Origin: Escherichia coli
GTDB taxonomy: Bacteria; Pseudomonadota; Gammaproteobacteria; Enterobacterales; Enterobacteriaceae
Length of the DNA: 64,000 nt
NCBI RefSeq assembly: GCF_046105845.1
Contig: NZ_CP151004.1
Reading direction: 5' to 3' (one strand)
In this document: positions 11,596 through 60,290 of the stretch, piece by piece
Layout of the letters: each line of letters opens with the position of its first letter
How positions within the stretch are numbered: the stretch's first letter is position 1
Program-made: the position numbers and the translations under genes
Notes under the pieces: generated by a model
Seen by the model: the letters and a program-made list of their open reading frames with translations, nothing else
Databases searched by the model: none
What the model was told of the DNA's origin: nothing

Positions 11596-13509
11596 TTACT
11601 TACGACCAGCCAGCAGTTCCAGCACTTCATCCACGCTGGTGGTGTGTGCCAGACGCTCGATGACAGTCTCATCATCCAGTGCATTGGTCAGGCTGGTGAT
11701 AACCTGAATGTGCTCGTTGTTACGGGCAGCAATACCAATCACCAGACGGGCAATGTCATCTTCTTCTTCACCGAAGCGCACGCCTTCCGGGTACTGGCAG
11801 AACACGACGCCCGTTTTGAGTACGCGATCTTTCGCTTCAACCGTACCGTGTGGCACCGCGATAGACTCACCCAGATAAGTCGGGGTCAGTTTTTCACGAT
11901 CCAGCATCGCCTGAACATATTCCGGCTCAACGTAACCGCCTTTCACCAGTTGCTCACCAGCAAAACGAATCGCTTCTTCTTTGGTGGCCGCTTTGCGACC
12001 GAGGAAGATGTTCTCCGCGCCTAGCTTGAACAGGTTAGCACTGGAATCGTCAAAGCTGTCTTTCAGACTGTCTTTCACTTTTACTTCGTTTTCAGTATGG
12101 CGCTGGGCAGCAACCAGACGTTCGGTCAGGCTGGTGTACAGGCCGCTGTCGAGGAAGTTGGTCAGCGAAATATGCTGTGCCTGCGGAACCTGGCGCATAG
12201 CGCGTTCGGTCAGGTCACGGTGAGTGATGACCAGGTCCACATCTGGCGGCAGGTTGTTGATCGCGCTGTTAGTGACCGAAATCTGCGACAGACCTGCATC
12301 CTGAATTTTCTTACGCAGCACGCCTGCGCCCATCGCACTGGAACCCATACCGGCGTCACAGGCAACGATGATTTTACGTACGTGGCTCAGGTCGTTAGTC
12401 ACATCGCCCGCAGACAGCGGGGACGCACCTTTAGACTCAGCTTTCATGTCCTGCATACGACGAGTTGCTGCTTCAATATCATCTTCTTCTTTCACTTTGC
12501 TGGTTTTCAGCAGAATGGCAGAGACAACGAAGGAGACAGCCATCGCCGCACACACACCCGCGATGTTAGCGAAATAAGCACCTTTTGGTGTCATCGCCAG
12601 TACAGCAAGGATAGAACCCGGAGATGCCGGAGAAACCAGACCACCGCCCAGGATAGTCAGCGTGAACACGCCAGTCATACCGCCGAGAATAACGGCCAGA
12701 ATCAGACGTGGATTCATCAGCACATACGGGAAGTAGATTTCGTGGATACCACCCAGGAAGTGGATGATTGCCGCACCGCCCGCAGATTGTTTAGCACTGC
12801 CACGACCAAAGAACATGTACGCCAGCAGCACGCCCATACCTGGACCTGGGTTAGCTTCAATCAGGAAGAAGATGGATTTACCCAGTTCATGGGACTGCTG
12901 AATACCCAGCGGCGAGAAGATACCGTGGTTAATGGCGTTGTTGAGGAACAGGATTTTCGCCGGTTCAACAAAGATAGACGCCAGCGGCAGCATGTCATGG
13001 ACAACCATGAAGTTAACGCCCGCAGCCAGCATTTTGGACAGGGCTTCAACAATCGGGCCAATGCCGAGGAATGCCAGAATAGCGAGGATCATCCCGATGA
13101 TGCCAGCGGAGAAGTTATTCACCAGCATCTCAAAACCGGATTTGATCTTACCGTCTACCCAGCGGTCGAAGTGCTTAATGCACCAGCCGCCCAGCGGACC
13201 TGCAATCATAGAACCGAGGAACATCGGCATGTCTGCGCCGACGATAACGCCCATGGTGGTAATGGCACCGACTACGCCGCCACGTTCGCCGCCTACCAGC
13301 TTACCACCGGTATAACCGATCAGCAGCGGCAGGAGATAAGTGATCATCGGCCCGACCAGCTTCGCCAGCGTTTCGTTCGGTAACCACCCTGTTGGAATAA
13401 ATAACGCGGTGATGATACCCCACGCGATAAACGCGCCGATATTTGGCATCACCATGTTGCTGAGGAAACGACCAAAGCTTTGCACTTTGATCTTAATATC
13501 GGATGACAT
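11596..13509 (-). CDS. mtlA: PTS mannitol-specific EIICBA
   Basis: 637-aa product [33 protein letters not shown]...; IIC membrane domain followed by IIB and IIA domains. Confidence 0.95.
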
Positions 13510-14045: not shown

Positions 14046-14408
14046 ATGTTTCTAAACTATTTCGCGTTGGGAGTGCTGATCTTCGTCTTTCTGGTGATTT
14101 TTTATGGAATCATCGCGATACATGACATCCCTTATCTGATTGCCAAAAAGCGCAACCATCCCCATGCCGACGCTATTCATACGGCGGGCTGGGTGAGCCT
14201 GTTTACTCTGCATGTTATCTGGCCGTTTCTGTGGATCTGGGCGACGCTCTATCAACCGGAGCGTGGCTGGGGTATGCAGTCACATGTTGCGTCGCAGGAG
14301 AAAGCGACTGACCCGGAAATCGCCGCACTTTCTGACCGAATTTCCCGGCTGGAGCATCAACTCGCCGCCGAGAAAAAGACTGACTATTCCACGTTCCCGG
14401 AGATCTAA
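14046..14408 (+). CDS. yibI: YibI inner-membrane protein
   Basis: 120-aa ORF with hydrophobic N-terminal half; divergent from mtlA, followed at 3 bp by yibH. Confidence 0.75.
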
Positions 14409-14410
14409 TT

Positions 14411-15547
14411 ATGGATCTATTGATCGTTTTAACTTACGTGGCGCTGGCGTGGGCGGTCTTTAAAATCTTCCGCATTCCGGTAAATCAGTGGACGCTGGCG
14501 ACGGCGGCGCTGGGAGGCGTGTTTCTGGTGAGTGGTTTGATTTTGTTGATGAACTACAATCACCCTTACACTTTTACCGCGCAAAAGGCAGTGATTGCGA
14601 TCCCTATCACGCCACAGGTGACGGGAATTGTTACTGAAGTCACCGACAAAAATAATCAGCTTATTCAAAAGGGCGAGGTGCTTTTTAAGCTCGACCCGGT
14701 TCGTTACCAGGCGCGAGTTGACAGACTTCAGGCTGACCTGATGACGGCGACGCATAATATAAAGACGCTGCGCGCGCAGCTCACTGAAGCGCAGGCCAAC
14801 ACCACCCAGGTTTCAGCGGAGCGCGACCGTCTGTTTAAAAATTATCAACGTTACCTGAAAGGCAGCCAGGCGGCGGTGAATCCGTTCTCGGAACGTGACA
14901 TCGACGATGCGCGGCAAAACTTCCTCGCGCAGGACGCGCTGGTGAAAGGCTCGGTGGCGGAGCAGGCGCAGATCCAGAGCCAGCTCGACAGTATGGTTAA
15001 CGGCGAGCAATCGCAGATTGTGAGCTTAAGAGCGCAACTTACTGAAGCAAAATATAACCTTGAGCAGACTGTCATTCGCGCACCGAGCAATGGCTACGTC
15101 ACTCAGGTACTGATCCGCCCAGGTACATACGCCGCTGCCTTGCCGCTGCGTCCGGTGATGGTCTTCATCCCCGAGCAAAAACGGCAAATTGTCGCCCAAT
15201 TTCGGCAAAACTCGCTGTTACGTCTGAAACCCGGCGATGATGCGGAAGTGGTGTTTAACGCGCTACCTGGGCAGGTGTTCCACGGTAAACTGACCAGTAT
15301 TTTACCTGTCGTGCCAGGCGGTTCGTATCAGGCGCAAGGGGTATTGCAATCATTAACGGTCGTGCCCGGCACGGACGGTGTGCTGGGAACCATTGAACTG
15401 GACCCCAACGATGATATCGATGCTTTACCTGACGGCATCTACGCCCAGGTGGCAGTTTACTCCGACCATTTCAGCCATGTTTCGGTGATGCGGAAGGTGC
15501 TGCTGAGAATGACCAGTTGGATGCATTATCTTTATTTGGATCATTGA
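14411..15547 (+). CDS. yibH: YibH, HlyD-family membrane fusion-type protein
   Basis: 378-aa ORF with N-terminal TM segment, long coiled-coil region and C-terminal beta-barrel-like region. Confidence 0.8.
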
Positions 15548-15617
15548 GACTTATATCACCTGTGTTTTGCGTGAGCCTGAGCCATACTGATATTTTTCCT
15601 CGCACAAAGGACTCGGC

Positions 15618-16226
15618 ATGAAACTCGTCGGTAGCTACACCAGCCCGTTTGTACGCAAACTTTCTATTCTGTTGTTAGAAAAGGGTATAACTTTCGAATT
15701 TATTAATGAACTGCCCTATAACGCGGACAACGGCGTGGCGCAATTTAACCCGTTAGGGAAAGTGCCGGTGCTGGTGACCGAAGAGGGCGAATGTTGGTTT
15801 GATTCGCCGATCATCGCTGAATATATTGAATTAATGAATGTCGCTCCGGCGATGTTGCCGCGCGATCCGCTGGAGTCGTTGCGGGTGCGCAAAATTGAGG
15901 CGCTGGCGGATGGCATTATGGATGCCGGGCTGGTATCGGTGCGTGAACAGGCGCGTCCGGCGGCGCAGCAGTCTGAAGATGAATTGTTACGCCAGCGGGA
16001 GAAAATCAACCGCAGTCTGGATGTGCTGGAAGGATATCTGGTCGATGGCACACTCAAAACCGATACGGTCAATCTGGCGACTATCGCCATTGCCTGTGCC
16101 GTCGGATATCTCAATTTCCGCCGCGTTGCGCCAGGTTGGTGTGTCGACCGCCCACACTTAGTCAAACTGGTCGAAAACCTGTTTAGCCGCGAAAGTTTTG
16201 CTCGCACCGAACCGCCAAAGGCTTGA
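15618..16226 (+). CDS. yibF: glutathione S-transferase-like protein YibF
   Basis: 202-aa [34 protein letters not shown]..., GST N-terminal thioredoxin-fold signature. Confidence 0.85.
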
Positions 16227-16323: not shown

Positions 16324-17715
16324 ATGACAACCGAAACGCGTTCCCTCTATAGTCAACTTCCGGCTATTGATCGCTTATTGCGCGATAGCTCCTTCCTTTC
16401 TTTGCGTGATACTTATGGCCACACCCGCGTAGTGGAATTGCTGCGTCAGATGCTTGACGAAGCGCGAGAAGTGATTCGTGACAGCCAGACGCTGCCCGCA
16501 TGGTGTGAAAACTGGGCGCAAGAAGTCGATGCCCGACTGACGAAAGAGGCGCAGAGCGCGCTGCGTCCGGTGATCAACCTGACGGGAACCGTGCTGCATA
16601 CCAATCTTGGGCGAGCTTTACAGGCAGAAGCCGCGGTGGAAGCCGTTGCGCAGGCTATGCGTTCGCCAGTGACCCTCGAGTACGATCTGGACGACGCCGG
16701 ACGCGGACATCGCGATCGGGCGCTGGCGCAGCTGCTGTGCCGCATTACGGGAGCGGAAGATGCCTGTATCGTTAATAACAATGCGGCGGCGGTGTTATTG
16801 ATGTTGGCGGCCACTGCCAGCGGGAAAGAGGTGGTGGTATCTCGCGGCGAACTGGTGGAGATTGGCGGCGCGTTTCGTATTCCTGATGTCATGCGTCAGG
16901 CAGGCTGCACCCTACACGAAGTGGGGACCACCAACCGCACGCACGCTAATGATTATCGTCAGGCGGTGAATGAAAATACCGCGCTGTTGATGAAAGTACA
17001 TACCAGTAACTACAGCATTCAGGGATTCACCAAAGCGATAGATGAAGCGGAACTGGTGGCGCTCGGCAAAGAGCTGGATGTTCCCGTAGTGACTGATTTA
17101 GGCAGTGGCTCGCTGGTTGATCTTAGCCAGTACGGTTTGCCGAAAGAGCCAATGCCGCAGGAGTTGATTGCGGCGGGCGTCAGTCTGGTGAGCTTCTCCG
17201 GCGACAAGTTGTTAGGCGGGCCGCAGGCAGGAATTATTGTTGGTAAAAAAGAGATGATCGCCCGCCTGCAAAGCCACCCGCTGAAGCGTGCATTACGCGC
17301 GGATAAAATGACCCTCGCGGCGCTGGAAGCCACGTTGCGTCTTTATTTACACCCTGAGGCGCTGAGTGAAAAATTACCGACCCTGCGTCTGCTTACCCGC
17401 AGCGCAGAGGTCATTCAAATCCAGGCACAACGTTTACAGGCCCCCCTTGCGGCACATTACGGCGCGGAGTTTGCGGTACAGGTTATGCCATGTCTTTCGC
17501 AGATTGGCAGTGGTTCGCTGCCGGTTGATCGCCTGCCGAGTGCGGCATTAACGTTTACACCCCATGATGGACGCGGTAGCCACCTTGAGTCATTAGCCGC
17601 CCGCTGGCGTGAATTGCCAGTGCCGGTGATTGGTCGTATTTATGACGGACGATTGTGGCTGGATTTACGCTGCCTAGAAGATGAGCAACGGTTTTTGGAG
17701 ATGTTGTTGAAATGA
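16324..17715 (+). CDS. selA: L-seryl-tRNA(Sec) selenium transferase
   Basis: 463-aa [24 protein letters not shown]...; stop overlaps selB start (ATGA). Confidence 0.95.
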
Positions 17716-19556
17716 TTATTGCGACTGCCGGACACGTTGACCACGGCAAAACAACCTTATTGCAGGCGATTACTGGCGTAAATGCCGATCGTCTGCCGGA
17801 AGAAAAAAAGCGCGGCATGACTATCGATCTCGGCTATGCCTACTGGCCGCAGCCGGATGGTCGCGTGCCTGGTTTTATCGACGTACCCGGTCATGAAAAG
17901 TTTCTTTCCAACATGCTGGCGGGCGTTGGTGGTATCGATCACGCGCTGTTGGTGGTGGCGTGCGATGACGGCGTGATGGCACAGACCCGTGAGCATCTGG
18001 CGATTTTGCAGCTGACCGGTAATCCGATGCTGACAGTGGCGCTGACCAAAGCCGATCGCGTGGACGAAGCGCGTGTTGATGAGGTTGAACGCCAGGTAAA
18101 GGAGGTGCTGCGGGAATACGGTTTTGCTGAGGCAAAACTGTTTATCACCGCAGCAACCGAAGGTCGGGGAATTGATGCCCTGCGCGAGCATCTGCTTCAG
18201 TTACCAGAACGCGAACACGCCAGCCAACATAGTTTCCGCCTCGCGATCGACCGCGCATTTACCGTAAAAGGTGCCGGGCTGGTCGTCACCGGTACGGCGT
18301 TAAGCGGGGAAGTGAAGGTAGGCGATTCACTATGGCTGACTGGTGTAAATAAACCGATGCGCGTGCGTGCGCTACATGCGCAAAATCAGCCAACAGAAAC
18401 TGCCCATGCCGGGCAGCGTATCGCGCTTAACATCGCGGGTGATGCGGAAAAAGAGCAGATTAACCGTGGCGACTGGCTGCTTGCCGATGCGCCGCCGGAG
18501 CCGTTCACACGGGTGATTGTCGAGCTTCAAACCCATACACCGCTGACCCAGTGGCAGCCGCTGCATATTCACCACGCCGCCAGCCACGTCACGGGACGCG
18601 TTTCGCTGCTGGAAGATAACCTTGCCGAGCTGGTGTTCGACACGCCGCTGTGGCTGGCGGATAACGATCGCTTAGTGCTGCGCGATATCTCGGCCCGCAA
18701 CACGCTGGCGGGGGCGCGTGTGGTGATGCTTAACCCGCCGCGTCGCGGTAAACGTAAGCCGGAATATCTGCAATGGCTGGCGTCACTGGCACGGGCGCAG
18801 AGCGATGCCGATGCGTTATCTGTTCATCTGGAACGCGGCGCGGTTAACCTTGCCGATTTCGCTTGGGCACGGCAGCTCAACGGCGAAGGGATGCGCGAAC
18901 TATTGCAACAGCCTGGCTATATTCAGGCTGGTTATAGCTTGTTGAATGCGCCGGTTGCCGCCCGCTGGCAGCGGAAAATTCTCGACACATTAGCGACTTA
19001 TCATGAGCAACATCGCGATGAACCTGGTCCTGGGCGCGAACGTCTGCGACGTATGGCGTTGCCAATGGAAGATGAAGCGCTGGTACTGTTGCTGATTGAA
19101 AAGATGCGCGAAAGCGGCGACATCCTCAGTCATCACGGCTGGCTGCATCTGCCAGATCACAAAGCGGGATTCAGCGAAGAGCAGCAGGCCATCTGGCAAA
19201 AAGCAGAGCCGCTGTTTGGTGACGAGCCGTGGTGGGTGCGTGATCTGGCAAAAGAGACGGGAACCGACGAGCAGGCAATGCGCCTGACGCTACGCCAGGC
19301 GGCGCAGCAAGGAATTATTACCGCGATCGTTAAAGATCGTTATTACCGTAACGATCGGATTGTCGAGTTTGCCAATATGATCCGCGATCTCGATCAGGAG
19401 TGTGGTTCAACCTGCGCGGCGGATTTCCGCGATCGCTTAGGTGTAGGCCGAAAGCTGGCAATTCAGATTTTGGAATATTTTGACCGCATTGGCTTTACGC
19501 GGCGTCGTGGAAATGATCATTTATTGCGCGACGCATTATTATTTCCGGAAAAATAA
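17712..19556 (+). CDS. selB: selenocysteine-specific elongation factor
   Basis: 614-aa ORF with GTPase motifs [10 protein letters not shown] and DVPGH; C-terminal winged-helix extension. Confidence 0.95.
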
Positions 19557-19614
19557 TGAGATAATTAATTAAGATTAATTAGGAAACACTCTAAAAATCT
19601 TATTAATTTTTAAA

Positions 19615-19641
19615 AAAGCACATTCGGATGTGCTTTTTTTA
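19615..19641 (+). terminator. rho-independent terminator after selB
   Basis: agcacattcggatgtgct stem-loop followed by a T7 run. Confidence 0.6.
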
Positions 19642-19734
19642 TGGCCTCTTATAAAAAGAGCAATAGCGGTCATGTTTTCAAATAAAAACACTTCGTAAGC
19701 TTCTCGCCCTTTTATACTCGTTCAGGAGTGTGTT

Positions 19735-20884
19735 ATGGCTGCTTCCACCTTTTTTTATTCCTTCCGTTAATGTCATTGGTGCAGATTCTTTTAAAGATGC
19801 GATGAATATGATGGCGGAATATGGTTTTCGCCGTACATTAATTGTGACTGATAGTGTGCTAACAAAATTAGGTATGGAGGGTGATGTACAAAAAGCATTA
19901 CAGGAACGTGATATTTTTAGCGTAATTTATGATGGTACGCATCCTAACCCGACCACAAAAAACGTCGCAGAAGCTCTTAAAATGCTGACGGAAAATAATT
20001 GCGATAGCGTGATTTCTTTAGGTGGTGGTTCCCCGCACGACTGCGCAAAAGGCATTGCGCTGGTGGCAGTTAACGGCGGCGATATTCGCGATTACGAAGG
20101 CGTGGATCGCACGGCGAAACCGCAACTACCGATGATTGCCATCAACACCACGGCGGGTACTGCATCAGAAATGACCCGTTTTTGCATTATCACCGACGAA
20201 GCACGCCACATCAAAATGGCGATTGTGGATAAACACGTCACCCCGCTGCTTTCTGTGAACGATTCGACTCTGATGATGGGTATGCCGAAGCCGTTAACCG
20301 CCGCCACCGGGTTGGACGCGCTGACTCACGCCATCGAAGCGTATATCTCTATTGCGGCAACGCCGATCACTGACGCCTGCGCGCTGAAAGCAATGACCAT
20401 GATCGCGGAAAACTTACCGATAGCGGTTGAAGATGGTCACAACGGCAAAGCGCGTGAAGCAATGTCTTACGCTCAGTTCCTCGCGGGCATGGCGTTTAAT
20501 AATGCTTCACTGGGATACGTACACGCGATGGCGTATCAGTTGGGTGGCTTCTATGACCTGCCGCACGGCGTTTGTAATGCCATTCTGCTGCCGCACGTTC
20601 AGTTATATAACAGCAAAGTTGCCGCCGCACGCTTTGACTGCGCGGCGGCTATGGGCGTGAATGTCACAGGCAAAAACGACGCGGAAGATGCGCAAGCCTG
20701 CATTAAAGCGATTCGCGAACTGGCGAAGACAGTGAATATCCCGGCAGGCCTGCGCGATCTGAATGTGAAAGAAGAAGATTTTGCGGTGCTGACCACCAAT
20801 GCCCTGAAAGATGCGTGTGGATTCACTAACCTTATTCAGGCAACCCATGAAGAAATTGTGGCGATATATCGCGCCGCAATGTAG
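19735..20884 (+). pseudogene. iron-containing alcohol dehydrogenase (YiaY/FucO family) paralog with an apparent +1 frameshift after codon 7
   Basis: ATG at 19735 with RBS aggag reads [15 protein letters not shown]; removing one T from the 7-T run restores [18 protein letters not shown]...; rest of ORF 19730..20884 is a full-length Fe-ADH (GGGSPHD motif, His-rich metal site). Confidence 0.6.
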
Positions 20885-21244
20885 TTCTCTTCCCGCAACG
20901 GCTGGCGCGTTGTCAGCCGTTTTGCTGAAGATATTACTGTATTTATGATATGGATATCAGACTATTAAAATATATTCAGACCTGTTTTGGAATATCTCAA
21001 TAATATTCGTTTCATTTGCGGTCGGGGGAAGAATTACCTACTATTCGCTGAGCGTTAAGGCCTGCTAATTGATCAACTTATGATCAATCAATATGGAAAA
21101 GTTATTGTTAAATAAATAACATATCGCACGCTGAATACGTCATGAATTTTTTTCAAGAAATATGTTATTAATAGTAAAGATGATCAAATTTATAAGCTTT
21201 TTTTATCTGTAAGCTGCGCCCCTTTTTCATATGGAGATAAAAAC

Positions 21245-22396
21245 ATGGCAGCTTCAACCTTTTTCATTCCCTCTGTGAATGTAATTGGCGCGGATTCATT
21301 AAAAGATGCAATGAATATGATGGCGGATTATGGTCTGCGTCGTACATTAATTGTGACAGGCCGTGTAATGGGCAAGAGCAGCGTGTTGGTGCAACTCCAA
21401 CAAGCCTTGCAGGAACGCAATATCGTAAGCGTTGTTTATAATGGCTCCCAACCGAACCCAACGACGAAAAACGTGGCTGCGGGTTTAAAAATATTGCAGG
21501 AAAATAATTGTGATAGCGTTATCTCCTTAGGCGGCGGTTCTCCACATGACTGTGCAAAAGGGATTGCGCTGGTGGCAACCAACGGCGGCGATATCCGGGA
21601 TTACGAGGGCGTAGACCGCTCGGCGAAACCGCAATTGCCAATGATTGCCATCAACACCACGGCGGGTACGGCGTCTGAAATGACCCGTTTCTGCATCATT
21701 ACCGATGAAACGCGCCACATCAAAATGGCAATTGTGGATAAACACGTCACCCCAATTCTTTCTGTTAATGATTCTACGTTAATGATGGGGATGCCGGAGT
21801 CACTGACCGCCGCCACTGGGATGGACGCATTAACCCATGCCATCGAAGCATATGTCTCTATTGCGGCAACGCCGATCACTGATGCTTGTGCATTGAAAGC
21901 GGTCACCATGATTGCTGAAAACCTGCCGCTGGCAGTAGCAGACGGAAGCAATGCCCAGGCGCGTGAAGCTATGGCTTACGCCCAGTTCCTCGCGGGTATG
22001 GCGTTCAACAACGCATCGCTGGGTTACGTTCATGCAATGGCGCACCAGTTAGGTGGTTTTTACAACCTGCCTCACGGGGTGTGTAATGCTGTTTTGCTGC
22101 CGCATGTTCAGGAGTTCAACAGCAAAGTTGCCGCTGCACGCCTGCGTGACTGCGCGGCGGCAATGGGTGTGAATGTAATGACAATGAACGAAGCTGAAGG
22201 TGCGCAAGCTTGCATTAATGCCATTCGCGAGCTGTCGAAGAAAGTGAATATCCCGGCAGGCCTGCATGAACTGGATGTTAAAGAAGAAGATATTCCGGTA
22301 CTGGCCACCAATGCCCTGAAAGACGCATGTGGGTTTACAAACCCAATTCAGGCAACCCACGAAGAAATTATGGCGATTTATCGCGCCGCAATGTAA
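21245..22396 (+). CDS. yiaY: iron-containing alcohol dehydrogenase (YiaY family), intact, 383 aa
   Basis: [26 protein letters not shown]...; Fe-ADH motifs; length matches what I recall for K-12 YiaY; which of the two copies is the true ortholog is uncertain. Confidence 0.8.
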
Positions 22397-22410
22397 TTAC
22401 CCTTCCTCCA

Positions 22411-22440
22411 GCGGCTGGCGTTTTGTCAGCCGTTTTTTTA
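22411..22440 (+). terminator. terminator hairpin after the second alcohol dehydrogenase gene
   Basis: cggctggcgttttgtcagccg followed by a T run; a related hairpin follows the first copy at about 20893-20915. Confidence 0.5.
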
Positions 22441-22521
22441 ACTATCTCAAAATTCGCGTTTTTTGAGATAGTTTCTCTTTCCTGCTATACACTATCTCAA
22501 TATTACGCTTTTTTGAGATAG
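22441..22521. promoter_or_regulatory. two copies of a 31-bp palindromic element upstream of the fic gene (candidate operators)
   Basis: actatctcaaaattcgcgttttttgagatag (22441-22471) and actatctcaatattacgcttttttgagatag (22491-22521); each is an inverted repeat tatctcaa...ttgagata; 50-bp spacing; ends 5 bp before the fic start. Confidence 0.6.
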
Positions 22522-22525
22522 GCAA

Positions 22526-23821
22526 ATGGTTATCAAATCACCTCCCACGCTGATTCCTTTATCACACTTATCGGGTGAGGAACTCCAGGCCCACCTGCGC
22601 TTTAACCGGGTTACCGATGAAAAAGGACGTTATCTACCTTTTGATGAGTTGCAGTACCGCATCAAAAAAGGAGAAAACGTCGAAGTGGCGTGGACGCTTA
22701 CCCGTCTGGCGCGCAACGCGGCGATCCAACGAATCAATTATTGCAATGAAGCGGGTGAACAGGCCGGATACAACATTACCCCGGTGATTGCAGAAGCGTG
22801 CGAGCTTGTCGACAAACGTGCTACCGCGCTGGCGCTGAAAGATCAGACTGAACGGTTACGCGGGGCCGGAGCCGAGTTAAGCCAGTTACGCCTGGAAGAG
22901 CCGATCACCAGCTCCCAGCTGGAAGGTGCGAATACTACAACGCTGGTGGCGAGAAAAATGCTGGAAACAGGGCGGTCGCCACGCACTGAAGACGAGCATA
23001 TGATTGCAGGAAATGCCCGACTGATGGCGGAAATTCCGCACTTACTCGCAGAACCGCTGACACCTGCGCTTATTCGCCAGTTACATGCCATTGGTATGGG
23101 TGGAATCAATGACGCGAAATATCGTCCGGGAGAATTTCGTGAAACAGATGATGTTGTGATCGCCGACTATGACGGCAATATTGTGCACCAACCGCCCGCT
23201 GCGGCATTGTTGCCGGAACGGCTGGAAAAAGTTTGCCAGTGGTTAAACAGCCATGAAGGGTATATTCACCCGTTAATCCGTGCCTGCATTCTGCATTTTA
23301 TGCTGGCCCATGAACATCCATTTCGCGATGGCAACGGGCGCACCAGTCGGGCACTGTTTTACTGGTATATGCTGAAATCGGGCTACGATGTTTTTAAATA
23401 TATTTCCATCAGCCGTTTTCTTCATGCTGCGCCAGTCAAATATGCTGCCAGCTACCAGTACACTGAATCAGACGGTATGGATCTGACTTATTTCCTTGAG
23501 TATCAGGCGGGTGTCATTAAACGTGCTTTGCAAAACTGGCAGCAGCATATTGATGAAATTATGCAACGAAGTGCAAAACTCGATAGTGTGCTGTTTAGCT
23601 CTGGTGTGCTTAAACGCCTGAATCCGCGCCAGGTAACGCTCCTGAATGTGATGCTCGCCAATCCGGGGAAAGAGTACACAGTTGCTGAAATTAGCGCGAG
23701 CCTGGGCGTCTCTGATAATACGGCTCGAGCTGATTTACGGACAATTGTTAAAGAAGGGTTTGCGCAAGAGAAAAGAATTAATAACCAGCAAGCAGTGTAC
23801 GTCGCACACTACCCGCTGTAG
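22526..23821 (+). CDS. Fic-domain protein (putative AMP-transferase), 431 aa, with N-terminal inhibitory-type motif and C-terminal HTH-like region
   Basis: Canonical Fic motif [12 protein letters not shown] at residues 264-275; S-x-x-x-E-G match (SSQLEG) at residues 129-134; C-terminal about 70 aa resembles a winged helix-turn-helix. Confidence 0.85.
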
Positions 23822-23928
23822 CTTTTGCCCGTAAATTCGTGATAGCCGTCGTAAAGCTGTTACCGACTGGCGAAGATTTCGCCAGCCACGTCTACCCTTG
23901 TTATACCTCACACCGCAAGGAGACGATC

Positions 23929-25467
23929 ATGACCAATAATCCCCCTTCAGCACAGATTAAGCCCGGCGAGTATGGTTTTCCTCTTAAGTTAAAAGCCCGT
24001 TATGACAACTTTATTGGCGGCGAATGGGTAGCCCCTGCCGATGGTGAGTATTACCAGAACCTGACGCCGGTGACCGGGCAGCTGCTGTGCGAAGTGGCGT
24101 CTTCGGGCAAACGAGACATCGATCTGGCGCTGGATGCTGCGCACAAAGTGAAAGATAAATGGGCGCATACCTCGGTACAGGATCGCGCGGCGATTCTATT
24201 CAAGATTGCCGATCGGATGGAGCAGAACCTCGAACTGTTGGCGACGGCAGAAACCTGGGATAACGGCAAACCCATTCGCGAAACCAGTGCTGCCGACGTG
24301 CCGCTGGCGATTGACCATTTCCGCTATTTTGCCTCGTGTATTCGGGCGCAGGAAGGCGGGATCAGTGAAGTCGATAGCGAAACCGTGGCCTATCATTTCC
24401 ACGAACCATTAGGCGTGGTGGGGCAGATTATCCCGTGGAACTTCCCGCTGCTGATGGCGAGCTGGAAAATGGCCCCTGCGCTGGCGGCGGGCAACTGCGT
24501 GGTGCTGAAACCCGCACGGCTTACCCCGCTTTCTGTACTGCTGCTAATGGAAATCGTCGGTGATTTACTGCCGCCGGGCGTGGTGAACGTGGTCAACGGC
24601 GCGGGTGGGGAAATTGGCGAATATCTGGCGACCTCGAAACGTATCGCCAAAGTGGCGTTTACCGGCTCAACGGAAGTGGGCCAACAAATTATGCAGTACG
24701 CCACGCAAAACATTATTCCGGTAACCCTGGAGCTGGGCGGCAAGTCGCCAAATATCTTCTTTGCTGACGTGATGGATGAAGAAGATGCCTTTTTCGATAA
24801 AGCGCTGGAAGGCTTTGCACTGTTTGCCTTTAACCAGGGCGAAGTTTGCACCTGTCCAAGCCGTGCTTTAGTGCAGGAGTCTATCTACGAACGCTTTATG
24901 GAACGCGCCATCCGCCGTGTCGAAAGCATTCGTAGCGGTAACCCGCTCGACAGCGTGACGCAAATGGGCGCGCAGGTATCTCACGGGCAACTGGAAACCA
25001 TCCTCAATTACATTGATATCGGCAAAAAAGAGGGCGCAGATGTGCTTACCGGCGGGCGGCGCAAGCTGCTGGAAGGCGAACTGAAAGACGGCTACTACCT
25101 CGAACCGACGATTTTGTTTGGTCAGAACAATATGCGCGTGTTCCAGGAGGAGATTTTTGGCCCGGTGCTGGCGGTAACCACCTTCAAAACGATGGACGAG
25201 GCGCTGGAGCTGGCGAATGACACGCAATATGGCCTGGGCGCGGGCGTCTGGAGCCGCAACGGTAATCTGGCCTATAAGATGGGGCGCGGCATTCAGGCCG
25301 GGCGCGTGTGGACCAACTGTTATCACGCTTACCCGGCACATGCGGCGTTTGGCGGCTACAAACAATCAGGTATCGGACGCGAAACCCATAAGATGATGCT
25401 TGAGCATTACCAGCAAACCAAGTGCCTGCTGGTGAGCTACTCGGATAAACCGTTGGGGCTGTTCTGA
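23929..25467 (+). CDS. aldB: aldehyde dehydrogenase B
   Basis: 512 aa from [17 protein letters not shown] (RBS aggag upstream); aldehyde dehydrogenase family with catalytic Cys region; the 542-aa ORF is a 5-prime extension. Confidence 0.9.
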
Positions 25468-25744
25468 TATAAGAAGCTGGTCGCATTGGGTATTCATTGC
25501 CTGATGCGACGTTTGCGCGTTTTATCAATTCAAATGTCTACGTCTTGAATGACTGAATATTGATTGAACTTAATTACGAGTCTCCTCGCATATTTTCTAC
25601 CAATTACTGCACACCGTTATTCTTCTTCCGAGTGGCATTCCTGAGTCAACTTTATCCCCCTGACGGCCCATATAAATCGCGCTATCGTGATTGTTATCGC
25701 TAATTGTGTGTGTATCGTGTGTATAATCATGGAAGGGCAGGGAT

Positions 25745-25930
25745 GTGAAAAGTGCAGACGTGATCGCCATCCTGAAGCAGCATGGCTGGGAACATATTCG
25801 AACCCGTGGCAGTCATCATCAGTTCCGCCACCCTGTTCATCCGGGTCTGGTGACGGTTCCGCACCCTAAAAAAGATATTAAGCCCGGTACGCTGGCGCAA
25901 ATTGGGCGTCAGGCTGGTTTAACATTTTAA
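25745..25930 (+). CDS. hicA: HicA-family toxin
   Basis: 61-aa basic protein (GTG start) ...LKQHGWEHIRTRGSHHQFRHP...; size and G-S-H-H motif fit HicA; immediately followed by hicB. Confidence 0.75.
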   Translation: MKSADVIAILKQHGWEHIRTRGSHHQFRHPVHPGLVTVPHPKKDIKPGTLAQIGRQAGLTF

Positions 25931-25946
25931 AATTTCAGGAGGCAAT

Positions 25947-26357
25947 ATGTTTTATCCCGCCTATATCCACAGTGATCCTGACGGCAGCGCCAGCGGTTTT
26001 TTCCCTGATGTTCCAGGCTGTTATTTTGCTGGTGATACGCTGGACAACGCTTTCCAGGATGCGCGAAGTGCACTGGTCGCGCACTTCGAAACCTTATGCG
26101 AGATGAATGAAGAGTTGCCGCTTCCAGGCTCTGTGGAAACACATCTGGTCCAGCGTGCGCAGGACTTTATTGGCGGGCAATGGTTGCTGGTGGATATCAA
26201 TATGAATCAATTCGAAGGTCGGGCTGAACGTATCAATATTACGATGCCAAAAAGATTACTGAACAAGATTGATACCTACGTGCGCAATAACCCAGACTAT
26301 GCCAACAGAAGTGCGTTTCTGGCGGAAGCTGCCCGGCGTGTATTGCCGGGCGTTTAA
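25947..26357 (+). CDS. hicB: HicB-family antitoxin with C-terminal ribbon-helix-helix-like region
   Basis: 136 aa; N-terminal HicB-like fold; C-terminal RINITMPKRLLNKIDTYV...RSAFLAEAARR resembles an RHH DNA-binding domain; 16-bp gap after hicA. Confidence 0.75.
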   Translation: MFYPAYIHSDPDGSASGFFPDVPGCYFAGDTLDNAFQDARSALVAHFETLCEMNEELPLPGSVETHLVQRAQDFIGGQWLLVDINMNQFEGRAERINITMPKRLLNKIDTYVRNNPDYANRSAFLAEAARRVLPGV

Positions 26358-26402
26358 TCTCGCGTTTCGATGGTTGGCGGGCAACCGCACCGATATGTTG
26401 AT

Positions 26403-26432
26403 ACTGATAAGACGCGTTAAGCGTCGCATCAT
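26403..26432. repeat. REP-like element at the hicB / glycosidase 3-prime junction
   Basis: ctgataagacgcgttaagcgtcgcatcatg resembles a REP unit; a partial REP-like gcctgatgcgacg lies near 25500 after aldB. Confidence 0.5.
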
Positions 26433-28393
26433 GCGCTGGTTTCCTCATTCACCCAGATCCGCATTTCGCCTTCACCCCGGTTGGCCCAGCTAAACCACGG
26501 GATAAAGGTCAGGGTTTGCGGCTGGCGTTTGGCTGGCGCACTGTCGTAATGCCACAGCGGTTGTTGTTCTGGATTGCTCTGTTCATACCGGTAACCCGGT
26601 GCCTGGATTAAGATCTTATGGCTGAACAATCCCTTACCTTCAAATGTCGTAAATGGCGCATCGGCGGGCAGCCACAGATTATGCAGTGACTCGCCGTTGT
26701 CGGCCTGTTCCAGGCAATACACCAGCGGGCCGCGCTGAATCGCCACTTTTCCGGCGACGTGACGCACCAGCGGGTTACCGTAAACGCGGCGTACCGGCAT
26801 CGGCAAAGTCAGATTCAGCGTATCGCCCTCCTGCCATTCGCAGGTAATGTGCAAATACCCTTTACGAATATCCTGCTCGACCTCTTCCCCATTCAATATG
26901 ATCTGCGGCTGTGTGCACCAGTCCGGCAGACGTAAAGCCAGCGTATGACGCACCGGCTGGGGCGATTCAACCGCAATTGTCACCTGTTCCTGCCACGGAT
27001 AGTTTCCGCTAACCCGCAGACGCAGCGTGCCATTTTCTACCGGCACTTCCATGCTGTTTCCTGCGTAGATGTTGATATACAACGCATCTTCACGCGGCGT
27101 GTAGAGATAATGACCAATCGAGGTTAGCACGCGGGCGATATTTGGCGGACAACAAGCGCAACCAAACCAACGCTGGCGGATCGGCTTAACGTGATCGTAG
27201 ATATGGTTGAATTTTAACGTTTTTGGATGCACTTCCAGCGGATTAACGTAGAAGAAATGTTTGCCATCCAGCGCCATGCCGCCGAGCACGGTGTTGTACA
27301 GTGCGCGCTCCATCACATCGGCATATTGACTGTCGCCTTCCATTTCCAGCATTCGCCGGGCGAACATCATCAGGCCGATGGAAGCACAGCTTTCGGCGTA
27401 TACCGTGTCATTCGGCAGATCGTAATCGCTGCTGAACGCTTCGCCGCTGCTTTGTGAGCCAATGCCGCCGGTAATATATAACTGACGCTGGGCCATATTG
27501 TTCCACAGCCGCAGGCAGTCCTGACGCTTGCTTTCATCGTGACTTAAACGCGCGAGATGCGCGACACCGGTCATCAGATATACAAAGCGTACTGCATGTC
27601 CGATGGCGGTTTGTTGCTGTGCGATGGGCAAATGCGCCTGGCTGTAGGCTTTATCTTTCACCATCCACGCCGGGCCGTAGGTGTGCCAGTGCGAGGTCTG
27701 CCCGCGCTTTTCATATTCCTGGTCGTAATAGTGCGGTTGCGCACCACGCTGTTCGACAAAATAGTTCGTCAGCGCCAGGTAGCGCGGCTCTTCGGTCACT
27801 TCATACAGGCGCATTAGTGCCAGTTCAATTTCCGGGTGACCAGGATAACCGTGTAACTTACTTTCACCTGGACCAAATACGCTGTCGATATGATCGGCCA
27901 GACGGCAAACCACTTCCAGCAAGCGCCGCTTGCCCGTGGCCTGGAGGAAGGCGACTCCGGCTTCAATCAGATGACCGGCGCAGTAAAGTTCATGACACTC
28001 CGCCAGATTGCTCCAGCGTTCTTCGGGCGCTTTTACCGTAAAGTAAGTATTGAGATAGCCATCTTCGCACTGGGCGGAAGCGACCAGTTCGATTACCTCG
28101 TCAGCGGTTTTTTCCAGTTCGGCATCCGGCTTCTGGCACAGCGACCAGGCTACCGCTTCCAGCCATTTGGCGACGTCGCTGTCCTGAAACACCATCCCGT
28201 AAAATTCACCGTCTTGCAGTCCTGCGGCAATGCGAAAGTTTTCAATCGCATGGCTGGGTTCCGCTTCTGGGATACGATCGTTCAAGGCATCCCACTGATA
28301 AGGAATCACCACGTCGCGGACCAGTTGTTGGTACTGACCGAGGAACGGATCGCTGACCGTCAGTTTATGCAGATCGACTTCCGAAATGTTCAT
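26429..28393 (-). CDS. glycoside hydrolase family 127-like protein (DUF1680 / beta-L-arabinofuranosidase-like)
   Basis: About 654 aa from MNISEVDLHKLTVSDPF; AAGGAG RBS 6 nt upstream of this start; Cys-rich C-terminal half as in HypBA1-type enzymes; assignment is from family resemblance by eye. Confidence 0.65.
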   Translation of the reverse strand: MNISEVDLHKLTVSDPFLGQYQQLVRDVVIPYQWDALNDRIPEAEPSHAIENFRIAAGLQDGEFYGMVFQDSDVAKWLEAVAWSLCQKPDAELEKTADEVIELVASAQCEDGYLNTYFTVKAPEERWSNLAECHELYCAGHLIEAGVAFLQATGKRRLLEVVCRLADHIDSVFGPGESKLHGYPGHPEIELALMRLYEVTEEPRYLALTNYFVEQRGAQPHYYDQEYEKRGQTSHWHTYGPAWMVKDKAYSQAHLPIAQQQTAIGHAVRFVYLMTGVAHLARLSHDESKRQDCLRLWNNMAQRQLYITGGIGSQSSGEAFSSDYDLPNDTVYAESCASIGLMMFARRMLEMEGDSQYADVMERALYNTVLGGMALDGKHFFYVNPLEVHPKTLKFNHIYDHVKPIRQRWFGCACCPPNIARVLTSIGHYLYTPREDALYINIYAGNSMEVPVENGTLRLRVSGNYPWQEQVTIAVESPQPVRHTLALRLPDWCTQPQIILNGEEVEQDIRKGYLHITCEWQEGDTLNLTLPMPVRRVYGNPLVRHVAGKVAIQRGPLVYCLEQADNGESLHNLWLPADAPFTTFEGKGLFSHKILIQAPGYRYEQSNPEQQPLWHYDSAPAKRQPQTLTFIPWFSWANRGEGEMRIWVNEETSA

Positions 28394-40596: not shown

Positions 40597-40694
40597 TGCC
40601 GGATGCGGCTAAAACGCCTTATCCGGCCTACAAATTCTACCAAATTCAATATATTGCAGAAATCATGTAGGCCTGATAAGCGTAGCGCATCAGG
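40597..40694. repeat. REP/BIME element (two inverted REP units)
   Basis: gccggatgcggctaaaacgccttatccggcctac and gtaggcctgataagcgtagcgcatcaggc between ysaA and avtA. Confidence 0.7.
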
Positions 40695-59295: not shown

Positions 59296-59573
59296 TCGCT
59301 AAATAATACAGCAACCTTTAATAATCTTCTGATGAATAAAGATTATCTCATATATTAATTTTATGAGATTTTTTTAGGATTATATCAAGGAGAAGAAACG
59401 AACTTATTAAGCTAGAATAGCCACGGGTGCTTGAGACTGTTTGTCTCAGGTATTCACCGAAAGGCAGACAGAGAAAAGCCCCACCTGACTATAAATCAAA
59501 GTGAGGCCCCTCTATGCATAGACACCATAAGGTTAGCCTCTTACTCGTTGGAAATCAACACAGGAGGCTGGGA

Positions 59574-59726
59574 ATGCCGCAGAAATATAGATTACTTTCT
59601 TTAATAGTGATTTGTTTCACGCTTTTATTTTTCACCTGGATGATAAGAGATTCACTGTGTGAATTGCATATTAAACAGGAGAGTTATGAGCTGGCGGCGT
59701 TTTTAGCCTGCAAATTGAAAGAGTAA
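59574..59726 (+). CDS. hokA: Hok-family type I toxin (small membrane peptide)
   Basis: 50 aa MPQKYRLLSLIVICFTLLFFTWMIRDSLCELHIKQESYELAAFLACKLKE; overlapping upstream frame 59514.. corresponds to mok. Confidence 0.85.
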   Translation: MPQKYRLLSLIVICFTLLFFTWMIRDSLCELHIKQESYELAAFLACKLKE

Positions 59727-59857: not shown

Positions 59858-59888
59858 TAAAAAAATCCCCGCCAAATGGCAGGGATCT
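59858..59888 (-). terminator. rho-independent terminator of cspA
   Basis: Minus strand reads atccctgccatttggcgggga followed by T run, just downstream of the cspA stop. Confidence 0.55.
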
Positions 59889-59913
59889 TAGATTCTGTGC
59901 TTTTAAGCAGAGA

Positions 59914-60126
59914 TTACAGGCTGGTTACGTTGCCAGCTGCCGGGCCTTTAGCGCCGCTTTCGATGGTGAAGGACACTTTCTGACCTTCGTCCAGAGATTT
60001 GTAACCATCGTTCTGGATAGCAGAGAAGTGTACGAACACGTCTTTAGAGCCATCGTCAGGAGTGATGAAGCCGAAGCCTTTGTCAGCGTTGAACCATTTT
60101 ACGATACCAGTCATTTTACCGGACAT
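59914..60126 (-). CDS. cspA: major cold-shock protein
   Basis: 70 aa [37 protein letters not shown] with RNP1/RNP2 motifs. Confidence 0.95.
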
Positions 60127-60290
60127 AGTGTATTACCTTTAATAATTAAGTGTGCCTTTCGGCGATATGGCGTGCTTTACAGATTTTGAAGCGTTAAAGG
60201 AATGTGCACTACGAGGGGTATCAACGATAACTCTTGAAGAGGACTTGCCTTACTACACTGCTTTAATGGTCTGTACGTCAAACCGTTGAG
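60127..60290 (-). promoter_or_regulatory. cspA long 5-prime UTR region (cold-box / thermosensing leader)
   Basis: About 160 nt non-coding leader upstream of cspA; function from established knowledge, boundaries approximate. Confidence 0.5.

Follow-up and report, generated by a model that had tools for sequence, protein, structure and literature searches.

The rhsA element of Escherichia coli K-12 was reportedly delimited in 1990, when Feulner et al. are said to have set its limits at 8,249 bp in K-12 and 32 bp in the empty allele, 'Rhs0', by comparison with an Rhs-free strain. The locus described here, in a 64,000-nucleotide stretch of an E. coli contig (NZ_CP151004.1; hereafter the window), has the same flanking genes and an interval of the same size by our own measurement, and we detect no difference from 'Rhs0' as reported; what is added is the identification of the 32 bp as ancestral spacer, together with the frequency of each allele in the population. 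In the survey of Jackson et al. (2009; PMC2935791), the yibF/yibH interval is rhs 'position 10', which many E. coli have, though not every one, and which is missing in the B2-like group and in E. albertii; its authors infer that position 10 arose after the B2-like split, by duplication of position 5 (rhsC). Our locus and its flanks are those of position 10, and the leader of rhsA is almost identical to that of rhsC, unlike that of rhsB, in agreement with an origin from position 5. Whereas that study recorded rhs presence only, in 20 strains, the present comparison covers 5,426 complete E. coli genomes and includes a third occupant of the site, in 143 of them.

The site lies within a conserved run of genes. 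Upstream, mtlA is encoded on the minus strand (11596–13509; NF011663, full length), followed on the plus strand by yibI (14046–14408), a DUF3302 protein gene from the list of open reading frames and the first of a yibI–yibH pair. In two E. coli genomes, those of MEI003 and Z1322HEC0005, the matching gene carries the annotation yibI, and the window's copy shares 95–99% amino-acid identity with its equivalents at four other Escherichia loci (L004–L007). The 378-residue product of yibH (14411–15547, plus strand, with its TGA stop codon at 15545–15547) is a membrane-fusion protein of the HlyD family, matching the NCBIfam HlyD/EmrA-type periplasmic adaptor. Next on the same strand is yibF (15618–16226, ATG at 15618), which encodes a glutathione S-transferase-like protein of 202 residues (NCBIfam NF007682, E = 7e-123, full length), and the downstream context consists of selA and selB (16324–19556, plus strand; TIGR00474, 3.5e-190, and TIGR00475, 6.2e-276). 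The names yibH and yibF are those of the RefSeq annotation in matching E. coli genomes. The two reading frames are thus adjacent, in the same orientation and 70 bp apart (spacer 15548–15617, as read from the sequence and the list of open reading frames), just as a preliminary description of this DNA had placed them.

That description also placed rhsA, yibA, yibJ and yibG between yibF and yibH in K-12, and the MG1655 annotation bears this out. There, yibF (3761347–3761955) and yibH (3770243–3771379) are separated by 8,287 bp, and the eight genes of the interval are rhsA, yibA, yibJ (a pseudogene), yibG, yibS, yibW, yibV and yibU; adjacency of yibH and yibF is therefore not a feature that K-12 shares. 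When the interval was aligned by blastn, homology between the window and K-12 stopped at 15548 (NC_000913.3 3770242) and restarted at 15581 (3761992), with approximately 98% identity on either side of the break. More specifically, the yibI–yibH block shares 98.3% nucleotide identity with K-12, and the segment from 15581 to 16226, comprising yibF and its leader, shares 99.2%. Between these breakpoints the window has an unrelated sequence of 32 bp (15549–15580, ACTTATATCACCTGTGTTTTGCGTGAGCCTGA) where K-12 has exactly 8,249 bp (3761993–3770241). According to the blastn breakpoints, the 32-bp segment is found only in genomes with an empty site, while the remaining 37 bp of the spacer, the yibF leader (15581–15617, plus strand), are common to empty and occupied genomes, the latter matching from 15581 onward.

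The RhsA element, which sits at exactly this chromosomal position in K-12, is wholly missing from the window. Searches of the entire 64 kb by tblastn with RhsA, YibA, YibJ, YibG and YibV, and by blastn with the whole K-12 element, returned no match, and none of the traits of an Rhs element (a large reading frame, a GC-rich core of YD repeats, a variable C-terminal tip, or a downstream region of immunity genes and orphan tips) is present in the window. With an intact junction, no remnant, and homology that breaks just where the element of K-12 begins and ends, the earlier reading of the site as unoccupied stands. A search within the element for a trace of the ancestral spacer gave a match of 10 bp, TTATATCACC, situated 79 bp in from the yibF-side edge. 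This stretch aligns with the rhsC leader, to which it is identical at 7 of 10 positions, and was consequently rated as chance or microhomology rather than as a remnant of the spacer.

The spacer itself is plain. It matches the spacer of MEI003, also an empty-site strain, at every base and that of Z1322HEC0005 at all but one. Neither a sigma-70 consensus promoter nor an intrinsic terminator was found within it; its predicted RNA fold is no better than that of shuffled controls (z = +1.18); no Rfam family matches it, no repeats occur in or around it, and the window contains no tRNA. A Shine-Dalgarno-like AAGGA (15607–15611) lies 6 nt upstream of the yibF ATG, and a block at 15579–15591, GAGCCATACTGAT, is kept in the spacers of Escherichia and of the Kluyvera group, with one change in Citrobacter amalonaticus. 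Judged from its sequence, the spacer is likely to provide yibF with no more than a ribosome-binding site and a promoter that is weak or departs from the consensus, and the GAGCCATACTGAT block may contain a putative −10-like element. In that case, the −35 side of the promoter would be what the Rhs insertion replaced in K-12. The traits of an island attachment site were likewise not observed: there is no tRNA at the boundary and no flanking repeat, and no integrase is annotated in the occupants of K-12 or of strain EcPF40. Nor does the spacer resemble the scar of an excised transposon or insertion sequence, as it shows no target-site duplication or remnant of an inverted repeat and consists of the ancestral sequence with no extra bases.

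To establish which state came first, the YibF protein was searched against one genome per species, which yielded 55 loci. The order mtlA (minus strand), yibI, yibH, yibF, selA is found in four representatives of Escherichia species (L004–L007), including E. whittamii, and again in Citrobacter amalonaticus, two Citrobacter-like isolates, Kluyvera cryocrescens, Pluralibacter, Lelliottia, Huaxiibacter and two further Enterobacteriaceae. In the outgroup loci that share this order, the gap between yibH and yibF is approximately 65–95 bp, and no Rhs core was found at any of the 55 YibF loci. The spacer can be aligned throughout in the other Escherichia (L004–L007) and is also alignable in L010, L011 and L014; it is partly conserved in Citrobacter and Kluyvera. 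The orthology of the spacer in outgroups that lack Rhs indicates that the 32 bp are ancestral intergenic DNA, and that the empty state is the ancestral one. Two loci of the genus are arranged differently. On a short contig of E. albertii NBRC 107761 (L009 89–781), the gene directly upstream of yibF is not yibH but a MOSC-domain (YiiM-like) gene. In Escherichia sp. MOD1-EC7003 (L008 1–2925), yibF adjoins the edge of a K-12-type element, beyond which come a transposase fragment of the H-repeat/ISAs1 type and unknown reading frames, with no Rhs core within 2.9 kb.

Elsewhere, the window is a mosaic. Identity to E. coli was only 94.6% for a 16-kb query, a low value that is attributable to a divergent block at 19.4–25.5 kb: in a sliding profile, identity is 96–99% from mtlA to selB and drops to 82–87% in the block that begins at approximately 19.4 kb. 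A source in another Escherichia species was considered and rejected, since the 24-kb xyl–glyS segment matches E. coli collinearly, with 99.0% identity, and ordinary E. coli are closer to the window than the other Escherichia representatives are. This 24-kb alignment is also the best match among complete genomes, none of which is very closely related to the source lineage. Within the block (approximately 19400–25500) are two tandem yiaY-like genes for iron-dependent alcohol dehydrogenases (19730–20884 and 21245–22396), where E. coli has a single yiaY; their products share 83% amino-acid identity, and both genes are 82–84% identical to E. coli yiaY at the nucleotide level. The first has no close copy in complete E. 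coli genomes (best match 84.4%), and the best match to the second together with a Fic-family gene is 90.5%. The divergent block was probably imported.

Several further features were recorded in passing. Only about 0.9 kb (25527–26440) separates aldB from the GH127 and MFS genes, where Z1322HEC0005 (L003 24163–28095) has a hypothetical gene followed by yiaW, yiaV, yiaU and yiaT; from this short distance, the window appears to lack the yiaW–yiaT block, a paralogue of yibI–yibH. An intact reading frame of 1,808 aa on the minus strand (2202–7628) occupies the position at which Z1322HEC0005 has a split or pseudogenised YadA-like trimeric autotransporter, and the part from 3856 to 7164 has no megablast match to that genome. 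At 11565–11585, the window lacks some 115–135 bp, possibly a REP-type repeat, that Z1322HEC0005 has between mtlD and mtlA; owing to this absence, the mechanically called reading frame 10353–11684 (443 aa) overextends mtlD. Three Rfam families scored above their gathering thresholds: the cspA thermoregulator (59859–60287, minus strand), the sok antitoxin RNA of a chromosomal hok/sok locus (59425–59576, plus strand), and the sRNA ES036 (40632–40674, plus strand).

These comparisons lead us to propose, with high confidence, that 15548–15617 is the unoccupied ancestral allele, that RhsA was gained in the K-12-like lineage, and that the source strain either has always lacked it or, with lower probability, recovered an empty site. 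In Escherichia and its close relatives, the genes would at first have stood in the order mtlA (minus strand), yibI, yibH, yibF, selA, selB, with a yibH–yibF spacer of approximately 70 bp. Into this spacer, in the K-12-like lineage, an 8,249-bp composite would have arrived, made up of the rhsA polymorphic-toxin gene, its partner yibA and a trail of orphan C-terminal tips, either by illegitimate recombination or by duplication from rhsC, and would have taken the place of 32 bp of spacer sequence. The source strain most plausibly stands outside that event; alternatively, homologous recombination could have returned the empty allele to it.

This last scenario, in which the ancestors of the strain bore RhsA and recombination replaced the whole yibH–yibF interval, fares best among the competing explanations, yet we regard it as unlikely. 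The mosaic pattern of identity to E. coli, 97–99% around the site and 82–92% in a block only 4 kb away, implies that recombination has acted nearby, and the segment 15581–16226 is 99.2–99.4% identical to genomes of occupied lineages. Replacement of the allele also seems feasible, as suggested by strain EV36 (H155, NZ_CP079993.1), a laboratory hybrid obtained by crossing K-12 with a K1 strain through conjugation, which has an empty junction though K-12 is occupied. Against this, no positive sign of an earlier occupant in this lineage was seen. MEI003, whose site is empty, matches the spacer and both flanks just as closely (99.4% identity over 15548–16226), such that the flanks are about as similar to occupied as to empty genomes. 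As an empty site is ancestral for the genus, a site that was never occupied is the simpler reading.

Precise deletion of a formerly present RhsA is effectively refuted. Rhs elements are known substrates of RecA-dependent rearrangement (PMC2935791), but the 32 bp are missing from K-12 and present in the window and in the outgroups, and simple deletion of the element from a K-12-like chromosome could not have recreated the sequence seen here. Moreover, we found no terminal direct or inverted repeats on the K-12 element that might mediate a precise excision, and the window retains no remnant of it. An artefact of assembly is hardly credible either: Rhs cores are multi-kilobase repeats that commonly break short-read assemblies, and a collapsed or skipped core could falsely join yibH to yibF, but a collapse would not yield the exact ancestral 32 bp, no Rhs sequence lies at any edge, and a 102-bp junction is present in one piece, at 98–100% identity, in 1,522 complete genomes. 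Ancestral vacancy thus remains the favoured explanation.

Across the 5,426 complete E. coli genomes, the intact one-piece junction that marks an empty site occurs in 1,522 (approximately 28%), a count that was identical with two independent queries, one of 1,327 bp and the other the 102-bp junction. A K-12-type Rhs edge contiguous with yibF was detected in 3,745 genomes, and the yibF-side junction of an island encoding fimbriae and an S6-family peptidase in 143; together, the three states account for 5,410 of 5,425 genomes, leaving approximately 15 unclassified. The empty site is exemplified by O25b:H4-ST131, E2348/69 and an APEC O2:K1:H7 strain, all of them phylogroup B2 lineages, and the Rhs-occupied state by K-12 derivatives, HS, O157:H7, O121 and O91. 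The value for strain typing that had been attributed to the empty site holds only in part: it is a marker at the level of lineages, but a coarse one, given that 1,522 of the 5,426 genomes share the empty state and that the site has three states rather than two. The locus is therefore best described as a three-state lineage marker (empty, Rhs, or fimbrial/SPATE island) with limited discriminatory power on its own. PCR from yibH to yibF would tell the states apart, with products of approximately 0.3 kb for an empty site, several kilobases for Rhs (approximately 8.5 kb in K-12, the length of the element differing among strains), and approximately 10.7 kb for the island.

The third occupant is illustrated by EcPF40 (L059 3635–14000), in which an island of approximately 10.4 kb carries, besides a helix-turn-helix gene, an operon for chaperone-usher fimbriae and the gene of an autotransporter peptidase of the S6 family (SPATE). 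Literature searched under the names of its flanking genes returned nothing specific to this island. The K-12 element (L001, approximately 13243) and the EcPF40 island (L059, approximately 3635) both start just after the position equivalent to 15548, the first base past the yibH stop codon, and both open with GGGGA(A/G)GGGG before diverging completely; on the yibF side, the island keeps the spacer, in a divergent form, from 15553 onward. This common start of two unrelated occupants could reflect serial replacement or sequence-directed insertion. Homology to the window in E. albertii and MOD1-EC7003 likewise ends at 15581. The shared breakpoints at 15548 and 15581 may mark a recombination-prone spot or a succession of occupants, each replacing the last; they may also be a coincidence, combined with conservation that declines naturally ahead of the yibF leader. 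That the spacer is a preferred hotspot accepting different insertions, and not simply the place where one chance event happened, strikes us as doubtful.

Overall, the presence/absence polymorphism at this site is confirmed as real, and it is an already published, ordinary difference between strains. The limits of rhsA measured here match the figures reported in 1990, now at the scale of 5,426 genomes, and the significance of the empty site goes little beyond bookkeeping. For the source strain, it means that no RhsA toxin/immunity locus is present between yibH and yibF, which places it among the approximately 28% of sequenced E. coli that have the ancestral arrangement.
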